DNA from: a virus | Direction: 5' to 3' (one strand) | Length of the DNA: 44,246 nucleotides | IMG/VR virus record: IMGVR_UViG_3300026522_000051 | Location: 1 to 44,246 of that record | Shown: positions 28,043 to 29,144 of the stretch, one piece after another | How positions within the stretch are numbered: position 1 is the stretch's first letter | Layout of the letters: each line of letters opens with the position of its first letter | Notes under the pieces: generated by a model | The model's input: only the letters and a program-made list of their open reading frames with translations | The model's database searches: none | Told to the model about the DNA's origin: nothing | Program-made: the position numbers and the translations under genes

Positions 28043-28210
28043 ATATAAAACCTTGTTGCCTAGACTTTGACTATACATAGCGTTTGGACAAGGTAACTCA
28101 AACCTCGGGTTTCCCTATTACGTCGCTCCCCTAAGAACCAACGGAATGTTTCTCGATTACATTCAACACCTTCTTTTGCCGTCCAAGCATGGCAGGTATC
28201 TCTTCCATTG
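28043..28210 (-). ncRNA. GC-rich structured element (~160 nt) of unknown function, between tRNA-Ala and the 3' exon of the split tRNA
   Basis: The minus-strand RNA CAATGGAAGAGATACCTGCCATGCTTGGAC...GAATGTAATCGAGAAACATTC...GGGAAACCC...GTCCAAACGC has nested complementary stems. GC content is far above the surroundings. The overlapping ORF (28060..28260) has an unnatural composition. Confidence 0.35.
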
Positions 28211-28753
28211 TGGTGCGCCGCCGGAGACTCGAACTCCGGACACCCACATTTTTCAGTCATTTGATGAAAGTATTTTCAAGTTTAAAATTTTCTGCAAAAT
28301 TTATATTTTTTATTTGACCATTTTTTGTAGGTTTTAATCGTAATCTAAAAGAACGATTACCAATTTTTTCTATGGGAACAAGATAACATTGATGGTTATA
28401 AATTGTTGCAAAATAATCAACATCTTCCGCAGAATATGAATGATATACTGTTTTTTGAGTATTAGTATGAGAAGATTCAGTTCTAAATTCGATATAATCT
28501 CCATCAACACTTAAAGAAGATGTTTTTACTTGGATACGATATAATTTATGATGAATATCAACAATAAAATCATATCTACTATCTGATACTAATGGCTTAC
28601 ACACTTGATACCCCTGTGATAAAAAAGCTTCAGCTACTTGAAGTTCTGTAATTTCCCCACGAAAATGAGTATTTAACATTAACTCACCTCCTAGAAAATA
28701 CTTTCTTCTCCTGTGTGAAAAGTGTGGTGCTCTACCACCTGAGCTAGCGGCGC
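28211..28753 (-). tRNA. split tRNA gene, most like tRNA-Lys (UUU). A 467-nt ORF-containing insertion lies in the anticodon loop.
   Basis: The 5' exon (28718..28753) is GCGCCGC-TA-GCTCAGGTGGTAGAGC-A-CCACA-CTTTT. The 3' exon (28211..28250) is AA-TGTGG-GTGTC-CGGAG-TTCGAGT-CTCCG-GCGGCGC-A-CCA. The acceptor and anticodon stems are fully complementary across the insertion. Confidence 0.55.
28257..28679 (-). CDS. ORF encoded in the tRNA insertion. It is a PD-(D/E)XK-like nuclease and a putative homing endonuclease.
   Basis: An AGGAGGTGAG ribosome-binding site precedes the ATG at 28679. MLNTHFRGEITELQVAEAFLSQGYQVCKPLVSDSRYDFIVDIHHKLYRIQVKT has D...D...(Q)xK nuclease-like motifs. Its TGA stop lies 6 nt before the 3' exon. 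Confidence 0.5.
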   Translation of the reverse strand: MLNTHFRGEITELQVAEAFLSQGYQVCKPLVSDSRYDFIVDIHHKLYRIQVKTSSLSVDGDYIEFRTESSHTNTQKTVYHSYSAEDVDYFATIYNHQCYLVPIEKIGNRSFRLRLKPTKNGQIKNINFAENFKLENTFIK

Positions 28754-29144
28754 ATAAAAAACAAGGCACAATTTATTTGTTTATTTTTCTAGCTTTAAAA
28801 AATAATTTAAAAATAATTTATAAATAAAATTGCTGATAGTGCCTTTATAACAGTATTAAATTTTAATTGTACCGCTCTTCACTTTATAAAAATCTGAATT
28901 TTATAAATCTTCTCCTAAGAGGGCAGTTAAAATAATATAGCGACTATCTCAATAGTTTTCCATTAATACCATAATATAATAATCAAGAGCCTTACAATAT
29001 TAATTTAATCACTATGTTTTGATAGCCATTGTAAAAACTTGAATCCTTTTTAGTACTATAATAAAATAGAATAATTGCTGAATGGCTCTTCATAGTATTT
29101 TAATTAGACGCCAGCCAAAGATATAAGTATATCTAATTAAAATA

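Follow-up and report, generated by a model that had tools for sequence, protein, structure and literature searches.

The 44,246-nt stretch of viral DNA analysed here, termed the window (IMG/VR record IMGVR_UViG_3300026522_000051, positions 1 to 44,246), contains on its minus strand a tRNA-Lys(UUU) gene that is split in the anticodon loop, exactly between U36 and A37, by a mobile intron-like insertion of 467 nt (28251-28717), almost all of which is a homing-endonuclease open reading frame (ORF). The insertion is a mobile cassette that resides at position 36/37 of tRNA genes and belongs to a large family in phages that appear to infect Firmicutes. It lacks the features of both group I and bulge-helix-bulge introns, and its two ends are predicted to join in a helix that is conserved, covaries and takes in the anticodon by base-pairing. 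The best reading of this arrangement, to which we give about as much credence as doubt, is that the insert is removed by enzymatic cut-and-ligate splicing guided by the helix.

The 5' exon (28718-28753, nucleotides 1-36) comprises the 5' strand of the acceptor stem, the D arm, the 5' strand of the anticodon stem (CCACA), C32, U33 and the anticodon UUU, and reads GCGCCGC-TA-GCTC-AGGTGGTA-GAGC-A-CCACA-CTTTT from 28753 to 28718. The 3' exon (28211-28250) supplies A37, A38, UGUGG, the variable loop GUGUC, the T arm, the 3' strand of the acceptor stem, the discriminator A and an encoded CCA, and reads AA-TGTGG-GTGTC-CGGAG-TTCGAGT-CTCCG-GCGGCGC-A-CCA from 28250 to 28211. ARAGORN in intron mode reports a single tRNA, c[28211,28753], with a 467-nt intron, although its choice of junction, which leaves the anticodon AAA, is arbitrary. 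The split gene was missed in scans of the window with default ARAGORN and Rfam, which found four or five ordinary tRNAs. When the insert is removed the exons form a canonical cloverleaf with a 7-nt anticodon loop, CUUUUAA, as in bacterial-type tRNA-Lys(UUU), which agrees with the perfect tRNA-Lys cloverleaf around a 467-nt insertion that an earlier note on this DNA had proposed. The split-tRNA arrangement is not a chance match, because it recurs in dozens of independent contigs. The 651-nt split-tRNA region gave no blastn match in phage genomes, and the exact 3'-exon sequence had no match in viral contigs.

The junction is fixed by an allele that lacks the insert. A degenerate search of viral contigs for intact tRNA-Lys genes identified L176, part of a 201-kb viral contig of which 3.7 kb were read, which carries an uninterrupted tRNA-Lys(UUU) with the loop CTTTTAA. 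This gene, called tRNA-Lys(ttt), is identical to the joined exons at 74 of 76 positions, and the 5' exon corresponds to L176 3652-3687. In blastn, L176 aligns with window 28195-31431 at 95-98.6% identity, interrupted by two clean gaps, the first placing L176 3687/3688 at window 28718/28250 and the second placing L176 3228/3229 at window 30037/29184. The two exon differences are a C in GCTCAGG and a G in TTCGAGT, which are T and A, respectively, in L176. The junction cannot slide, because the bases flanking each breakpoint differ between the window and L176 alleles, and the empty-site allele, by fixing the junction at U36/A37, proves the Lys(UUU) reading. The earlier note had preferred lysine and had suggested a comparison with related genomes lacking the insert, which L176 now provides, with exact breakpoints; the other anticodons that it had entertained, a UUA that would read the ochre stop codon, a leucine UAA and an AAA, are all excluded by the empty site. 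Retention of a Phe(GAA) loop at the 3' junction (CTGAAAA followed by TGTGG) was likewise ruled out, both by the empty-site loop CTTTTAA and by relatives reading CTAAAAAA.

The insert opens with an untranslated part of 38 nt (28680-28717, minus strand) that holds the 5' strand of the closing helix and a Shine-Dalgarno sequence, AGGAGG, at 28692-28687. It is followed by the ORF (28679-28257, minus strand; 140 aa plus a TGA stop) and by 6 nt between the stop codon and the 3' exon, giving 44 non-coding nt in total, close to the ~45 nt estimated in the earlier note. The ORF matches Pfam PDDEXK_5 (PF11645) with an E-value of 8.2e-30 and 104 bits, against a curated cut-off of 26, and PDB entry 2OST, labelled 'Putative endonuclease', with an E-value of 6e-7 over residues 3-124. 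We take 2OST to be I-Ssp6803I. In an alignment of 30 members of the ORF family D37, Q50, V51 and K52, together with E12, are invariant, in keeping with the catalytic D...(D/E/Q)xK pattern, and the YD and QVK of the ORF align with 2OST. By its sequence, the product is thus assigned to the I-Ssp6803I family of PD-(D/E)XK homing endonucleases, which bears out the earlier description of an insert made up almost wholly of a PD-(D/E)XK-like ORF that begins behind AGGAGG and stops 6 nt short of the 3' exon. The minus strand of the insert has no terminator-like site, so that read-through to the 3' exon is possible.

Relatives of the cassette are numerous. Endonuclease homologues number 188 in metagenomes at E<=1e-10, several of them on contigs of 100-200 kb. 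When 52 viral loci, 43 metagenomic loci and one from a metagenome-assembled genome (MAG) were fetched and run through ARAGORN in intron mode, discarding chimeras of adjoining tRNAs, 56 split tRNAs were recovered, of which 46 are unique. Homologues down to ~40% identity lie nearly all inside a tRNA, in inserts of 430-490 nt, and the interrupted genes are of eight types (Lys, Thr, Asn, Ala, Gly, Met, Ser and Pro). The exon cloverleaves are intact in each locus, with stems that differ in sequence and are still paired; L058 has an aberrant, non-canonical T loop, AUCAGCA. At L067 1432-1984 a split tRNA with a Lys anticodon has a variable arm of ~16 nt, unusual for tRNA-Lys. The hosts of the insert-bearing phages appear to be Firmicutes, as indicated by one locus in a Ruminococcus MAG and by an S-layer-homology (SLH)-domain protein and the use of AGGAGG sites in the window.

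The closest cultured relative is Enterococcus phage EFP01, whose endonuclease is 44% identical and whose tRNA-Asn is split by a 463-nt insert at CTGTT/AA, that is at 36/37, as aligned with phage iF6. Among the Schiekvirus relatives of EFP01, 33 of the 35 matching records are without the insert, with flanks 89-96% identical over about half of the query; for most of the 33, the annotation shows an intact tRNA-Asn at this place. The cassette thus shows a precise presence/absence polymorphism twice, between the window and L176 and between EFP01 and the 33 Schiekvirus records. More distant endonuclease relatives are free-standing, and lie beside tRNA-Ile in Pectobacterium phage My1 and beside tRNA-Asn in the haloarchaeal virus HSTV-4.

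Two side observations concern these loci. In EFP01 (L001 1900-1935 versus 1442-1466) the final stretch of the insert (~24 nt), ATGTTGAAACGATATTATGGCTGA, agrees at 19 of 24 positions with the D-arm/anticodon-stem region of its own 5' exon, ATGATGAAACGGTATCATGACTGG, so that the 5' leader of the insert could pair with either of the two; no such resemblance was seen by eye in the window copy. In addition, ROOL RNAs (RF03087) occur within phage tRNA arrays a few hundred bases from split tRNAs, at L001 2433-3019 in EFP01 (265 bits) and at L083 593-1171 (313 bits), and none was found in the window; a link between ROOL RNA and tRNA processing is pure speculation.

The 5' untranslated part of the insert is predicted to pair with its last ~30 nt, including the end of the ORF, in a helix that continues into the anticodon stem. 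The 3' strand (28251-28277, minus strand) consists of the last seven codons of the ORF, which are the distal-helix strand GAAAATACTTTC plus ATC AAA (I139 and K140), the stop codon and the final CUGAAA. Proceeding outward from CCACA/UGUGG, the predicted structure of the window copy comprises a C32/A38 mismatch, six pairs (UUUUCA/UGAAAA), small internal loops and a perfect 12-bp distal helix between GAAAGUAUUUUC (28705-28694) and GAAAAUACUUUC (28277-28266, in the last codons of the ORF). The six pairs consist of U33-A37, three between the anticodon and the terminal AAA of the insert, and two within the insert (CA with UG). This places the two junctions, which are related by a two-fold axis through the pair at nucleotide 35, on opposite strands of a single helix, with a 3-bp stagger and 3' overhangs. 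Folds of the end segments predict the same design in almost all of the 46 unique loci, with unrelated sequences in the distal helix, for example AGAAUGGCAAUUAC/GUAAUUGCCAAUUCU in L010, and RNAalifold on 11 close relatives yields 21 pairs, 11 of them with double compensatory changes. An A•A opposition (intron nucleotide 4 opposite nucleotide -7) followed by C-G is present in 23/23 unique Lys-type copies.

The pairing with the anticodon follows the identity of the tRNA. The last three nucleotides of the insert complement the anticodon in 38 of the 46 parsed loci, the remaining eight being mostly ARAGORN register errors plus a group I control, in which the last three nucleotides do not pair with the anticodon. 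The terminal triplets are AAA in Lys, AGC and AAC in Asn, AUA in Thr, GCA in Ala, GGG in Gly, AUG in Met, AGC in Ser, and CUA and CUG in Pro. By chance, three such pairs would form in ~5% of cases, and the pairing is present in all eight independent families. Each move of the endonuclease lineage to a new tRNA was therefore accompanied by a refitting of the insert end to the new anticodon. Homing at the DNA level needs no such change; exon-intron pairing that defines the junctions is common to all splicing systems. Terminal inverted repeats or a target duplication of the Tn type were considered and rejected, since the terminal triplet is the reverse complement of the anticodon and not a direct repeat, and since the helix sequences covary instead of being conserved.

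The insert was compared with the known classes of intron. The 751-nt region 28100-28850 gave no Rfam match to group I, group II or small-ribozyme models at the gathering threshold or at E<=10, in a search that scores a genuine group I intron in the tRNA-Leu(UAA) of the related contig L023 at 61.5 bits and that also misses the ORF-bearing group I intron of L003 at the gathering threshold. The Rfam group I and group II searches had been suggested in the earlier note, whose argument that the insert is too small for a group I core holds. With 38 + 6 non-coding nt the insert falls far short of the ~200 nt of free RNA of a group I intron, and its ends do not conform either: the 5' exon ends in U36 and the insert ends in ...CUGAAA, without a terminal G. 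Among the relatives, C or G closes the 5' exon as frequently as U does (C36 or G36 in Ala, Gly and Pro), and any of the four bases may be the last of the insert. The ORF is unlikely to conceal a ribozyme, because synonymous variation along seven close copies is even (0.20-0.47 per 10-codon window) save in the last ten codons (0.09).

A bulge-helix-bulge was also rejected. The predicted helix is continuous, without two 3-nt bulges around a 4-bp helix, and the insert lies at 36/37 instead of the canonical 37/38. In the window fold a 1x1 mismatch (C32/A38) is followed by 6 bp across both junctions, and in L083, L086 and L080 the helix is perfect across the junctions. A feature of archaeal and eukaryal introns is nevertheless present in all eight isoacceptor types, namely loop nucleotides of the 5' exon that pair with the intron and splice sites located on opposite strands. 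A K-turn or C/D-box in the internal loop of L010-type copies was discarded, as the tandem G-A pairs are absent.

The window holds a second, different case. The tRNA-Gly(UCC) gene (29145-30073, minus strand) is split between C35 and C36 by 852 nt (29185-30036) that are absent from L176. This insert starts with GUUUUAU and ends with AUAAGAC-ACCA, forming a 7-bp acceptor-like stem followed by an NCCA that abuts the 3' exon, and contains a T-arm-like hairpin, UGAGUUCAAAUCUCA. Its ORF (29209-29952) encodes a GIY-YIG endonuclease with nine in-frame TAG codons (Pfam E-value 7e-10 when TAG is read as Gln). ORF-less relatives of only 66-75 nt interrupt otherwise perfect tRNAs in L032, L059 and L133, where a cloverleaf is nested in the anticodon loop; the L032 insert (390-455) scores 41 bits with the Rfam tRNA model, and the acceptor-like stems covary (GAUACAU/AUGUAUC versus GUUUUAU/AUAAGAC). 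These inserts stop exactly at the point where a mature tRNA ends, which suggests that tRNA end-processing enzymes excise them and that the exons are then ligated. The ORF-less copies cannot home, and their persistence in perfect tRNAs argues that these phage-host systems can splice inserts that are not ribozymes, which raises our belief that the endonuclease-only class is spliced too. A tRNA-Leu(caa) called by default ARAGORN at 29145-29231, with its 'anticodon at position 27', is an artefact of the T-arm-like end of the insert joined to the 3' exon of tRNA-Gly. Group I introns are found in tRNA-Leu(UAA) of the related contigs L023 (335-648) and L003 (428-1227), between U34 and A35 and ending in G, one of them with a 711-nt ORF. 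Three kinds of tRNA insert, group I, endonuclease-only and tRNA-like, therefore coexist in this phage group. Short inserts of 52-75 nt with a common motif, AUAGUGUAAAGAACAC, were also noticed in anticodon regions at L069 2657-2803, L133 6157-6306 and L115 4435-4573 / L147 6101-6239; that of L133 folds as a nested cloverleaf and that of L115/L147 is flanked by a 5-nt direct repeat, CGGAC.

Enzymatic splicing would proceed as follows. The precursor would be transcribed through the insert, and the helix would present both junctions to a trans-acting endonuclease of host or phage origin, acting at the two symmetric sites. The exon ends would then be joined by an RNA ligase, presumably that of the phage, restoring an anticodon loop of the normal 7 nt and freeing the endonuclease mRNA, possibly as a circle. 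Topologically, this would be archaeal tRNA splicing minus the bulges. At the DNA level, the endonuclease would cut intact tRNA-Lys genes of co-infecting phages, and the cassette would be copied in by homing. More generally, we judge it an even question whether bacterial viruses possess ribozyme-free, enzyme-catalysed tRNA splicing in which an exon-intron helix or tRNA-like ends set the sites and a repair-type ligase reseals the exons.

Candidates for the joining step are encoded in the window, all genes of which lie on the minus strand. The obvious ones are an ATP-dependent RNA ligase of the DRB0094/Rnl5 type (14071-15447) and putative end-healing genes at 4213-6595, comprising two metallophosphoesterases (4213-4782 and 5852-6595; Pfam) and a P-loop Pnkp/KTI12-like kinase (4801-5415; Pfam, with weak NCBIfam matches to Pnkp and PSTK), all of which may serve in splicing. 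The ligase matches Pfam RNA_ligase (E-value 3e-5) and TIGR02306 (E-value 2e-11), both below cut-off, is 48% identical to annotated Bacillus-phage RNA ligases and had no match in a PDB search. These genes belong to an RNA-repair-type block (1607-26239) that adjoins the tRNA cluster and comprises an SPFH protein, three metallophosphoesterases, the kinase, the ligase, an RNase T-like exonuclease, RlaP, a cREC domain of the cyclic-phosphate-processing kind, a homologue of vault protein (MVP shoulder; 20557-23043) and a Ro-like DUF2828/vWA protein, together with genes for NAD salvage (NADAR, NAD synthase, a macro domain, NAMPT, a phosphoribosyltransferase and a nicotinamidase). A similar repair and NAD-salvage set lies beside the tRNA array of Schiekvirus iF6. 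Such a heal-and-seal kit can explain exon joining, and counter-defence against anticodon nucleases also accounts for the kit on its own.

Several points weigh against splicing of the insert. The argument for it is one from conservation. No candidate for a splicing endonuclease was found in the window, and no EndA-family or tRNA-intron-endonuclease domain was recognised by Pfam among the ~45 window ORFs scanned, the whole phage genome being ~200 kb. RNase III does not suit the role of excising nuclease, since it leaves a stagger of 2 nt where 3 nt are required. Sense and antisense strands fold with about equal stability, the sense strand being favoured in 24 of 46 loci, and for this reason G-U pairs are no proof of a helix at the RNA level. 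L176 presumably has this repair kit too, in spite of its empty site (the 3.7 kb read lie outside the kit), and in that case splicing is not what the ligase is kept for. The EFP01 relative iF6 showed no recognisable RNA ligase in its first 50 kb. Finally, ORF-less derivatives of the endonuclease-only class did not turn up in two pattern scans of viral contigs, and all copies may be young, their intact exons reflecting recent homing instead of selection. This last objection is partly answered by L205/L206, where the ATG start of the ORF is now ATA and AGGAGG has been lost while helix and cloverleaf are still perfect, and by L207 (55-390 and upstream), where in-frame TAG codons of the ORF align with conserved Gln of the relatives, making the cassettes long-term residents of recoded phages.

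Two further nucleases were considered for the cuts. The rules of RNase Z applied to the helix ends give unfitting positions, whereas RNase P-like cuts at the 5' ends of two helices fit the geometry, but the endonuclease-only class has no tRNA-like recognition element.

The earlier note had listed a compact intron, a novel splicing arrangement and a recent inactivation by a homing endonuclease, and these are still live alternatives. The last of them, in its fuller form an unspliced selfish cassette in which the endonuclease gene inactivates a dispensable phage tRNA and persists by homing in co-infections, is the main rival, possible if somewhat doubtful. The helix would then serve the endonuclease and not the repair of the tRNA, by protecting the mRNA ends in a tRNA-shaped scaffold, controlling translation or providing a processing site. 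Presence and absence of the insert in near-identical phages shows that the tRNA is dispensable or the insertion recent, and the free-standing relatives beside the tRNAs of My1 and HSTV-4 indicate that the family can spread without an intron. The ORFs are almost all intact, as expected of young elements; the two pattern scans of viral contigs for ORF-less derivatives of the endonuclease-only class returned chance matches only; and the T loop of L058 is aberrant. A selfish cassette of this kind, however, leaves unexplained why the terminal triplet tracks the anticodon in eight isoacceptor families and why the helix keeps a constant register with the anticodon stem. Several phages, including L013 and that of the window, carry two or three split tRNAs, which would amount to a cumulative loss of tRNAs, the ORF-less tRNA-like inserts of the same phage group imply a capacity for splicing, and in L205/L206 exons and helix have outlasted the start codon of the ORF.

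It is improbable, yet worth stating, that the endonuclease itself cuts the RNA helix, as a dimeric PD-(D/E)XK enzyme acting at two symmetric sites to leave 3'-OH and 5'-phosphate ends that the ATP-dependent ligase would seal. This would be the extreme version of an enzyme-spliced pathway, one PD-(D/E)XK endonuclease cutting both its DNA target and the RNA helix. I-Ssp6803I is said to leave 3-nt 3' overhangs on DNA. The two-fold symmetry of the junctions about the pair at nucleotide 35 is consistent with such a dimer, the exon half of the RNA helix has the sequence of a DNA half-site and the window ligase is of the 3'-OH/5'-P type; a passage in PMC3424549 also ascribes the restriction-endonuclease-like fold to the tRNA-splicing EndA. 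The intron half of the helix, however, is not a second DNA half-site, reading CACACAG in the window where AAUGUGG is needed. The active site is moreover an ordinary motif of metal-dependent DNA hydrolysis, A-form RNA is a poor substrate for such enzymes and the tRNA-like GIY-YIG class of the same phage would need a separate explanation.

Slightly harder still to credit, and in our view quite unlikely, is a new small self-splicing or self-cleaving RNA, in which ~90 nt of helix plus the tRNA body would be catalytic and joining would occur by reversed cleavage or by a ligase. The structure is conserved and covarying, the A•A and C-G positions are constant in the Lys-type copies and the scissile positions face one another across the helix, but the internal loops share no conserved sequence between tRNA types, L083, L086 and L080 form near-perfect duplexes of >15 bp with no space for a catalytic core, and none of the Rfam ribozyme models matched. 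A degenerate or highly compact group I intron is effectively refuted, even though the endonuclease family is that of the group I intron of Synechocystis tRNA-fMet and an insert after U36 is allowed by group I rules, since RF00028 gives no match at E<=10, the non-coding part amounts to only 44 nt, the last nucleotide of the insert is A, relatives are inserted after C36 or G36, and synonymous sites inside the ORF show no constraint.

Other features of the window include an apparent change of code. TAG seems to specify Gln in the late structural genes (31874-44062) as well as at 17229-18029 and 29209-29952; when it is read through, fragmented ORFs merge into proteins of 885 aa (38549-41203), 623 aa (35042-36910), 450 aa and, in two cases, 413 aa, and no suppressor tRNA(CUA) was found in the window. 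Three paralogues on the minus strand (3280-4212, 17229-18029 and 23708-24706) contain repeated CxC...CGC zinc-ribbon-like units and a C-terminal RFDF...EFDGxQH...RD nuclease-like domain (weak DUF2726 match), two of them with in-frame TAG, and are probably free-standing homing endonucleases of the Vsr/DUF559 type. An intergenic repeat of ~45-90 nt, present in at least 12 copies (5562-5653, 6574-6656, 10876-10967, 12620-12711, 16382-16473, 20440-20531, 26284-26366, 26576-26658, 30076-30119, 30278-30340, 30482-30544 and 31356-31447), reads on the minus strand as a promoter (TTGATT, 17 nt, TG-n-TATAAT). Copies precede early genes and a number of tRNAs, tRNA-Gly among them; the split tRNA-Lys has none directly upstream.

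Among known systems, the insert is, by the sequence of its protein and by its target, a relative of the tRNA-fMet intron of Synechocystis PCC 6803 that encodes I-Ssp6803I, without the ribozyme. Both are mobile, place a gene of the PF11645 family in the anticodon loop and target the anticodon stem-loop. The Synechocystis intron, in contrast, resides in a bacterial chromosome and not a phage, and its ORF is embedded in ~200 nt of self-splicing ribozyme, with U as the last base of the 5' exon and G as that of the intron, whereas the phage insert, with its 44 non-coding nt, has neither ribozyme nor terminal G and instead has an anticodon-pairing closing helix. The free-standing PDDEXK_5 genes of My1 and HSTV-4 share the family and the association with phage tRNAs, but lie outside an intact tRNA. 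In phage T4, Pnkp and Rnl1 form a healing and sealing kit, comparable to that of the window, which rejoins the anticodon loop of tRNA-Lys; there, a host defence nuclease breaks the loop at 33/34 and nothing is removed, while here two cuts would remove 467 nt. The intervening sequences of bacterial 23S rRNA likewise interrupt a stable RNA, have their ends held in a long helix and are excised by a double-strand RNase of the host, but RNase III leaves a 2-nt stagger and the rRNA pieces are not re-ligated, whereas a tRNA nicked in the anticodon loop would not decode. The SOS splicing of DNA transposons from animal mRNAs also begins with a pairing of inverted ends that triggers excision and is completed by an RNA ligase, but it is eukaryotic, gives imprecise junctions and uses unrelated machinery (PMC12779559).

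By analogy, the insert would work most like the archaeal ORF-bearing introns, in rRNA and tRNA and with homing endonucleases, that are processed by EndA and RtcB, yet it fails the bulge-helix-bulge motif. In these introns too the two intron ends form a long helix whose loop is occupied by the ORF, nucleotides of the 5'-exon loop pair with the 3' end of the intron and the splice sites are on opposite strands; a mature tRNA and a closed intron are likewise the products predicted for the phage insert. The phage insert differs in its continuous 3-bp central helix, in place of two 3-nt bulges and a 4-bp helix, in its position at 36/37 and not 37/38, in a bacterial host without known EndA and in an endonuclease of the PD-(D/E)XK and not the LAGLIDADG type.

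In the textbook view, the tRNA introns of bacteria and phages are self-splicing group I introns, and those spliced by enzymes occur only in archaea and eukaryotes. According to a 2014 review, the phage introns known at that time were all in protein-coding genes, although phages have many tRNA genes (PMC3984707). No description of the present arrangement was found in full-text searches for phage tRNA introns, split tRNAs and I-Ssp6803I, a prior description in a subscription journal being possible, and this widespread class of insert is apparently undescribed.

If it is spliced as proposed, the insert would represent a third kind of tRNA intron, beside group I and bulge-helix-bulge introns, and the first protein-spliced intron in the bacterial world. 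It would reveal an unrecognised splicing route in phages of gut, rumen and Enterococcus bacteria, and the RNA ligases and repair kits of phages would gain a second role beside counter-defence. As EFP01 is cultured and its sequenced relatives (33 matching records) lack the insert, the debated link between homing endonucleases, the restriction fold and tRNA splicing endonucleases would become experimentally testable, and should the endonuclease cut both DNA and RNA, it would show in an extant system how splicing endonucleases could have arisen from homing endonucleases. If the insert is not spliced, it would instead exemplify a new way for a selfish gene to ride in a tRNA scaffold, and would mean that phage tRNA annotation systematically misses such genes.

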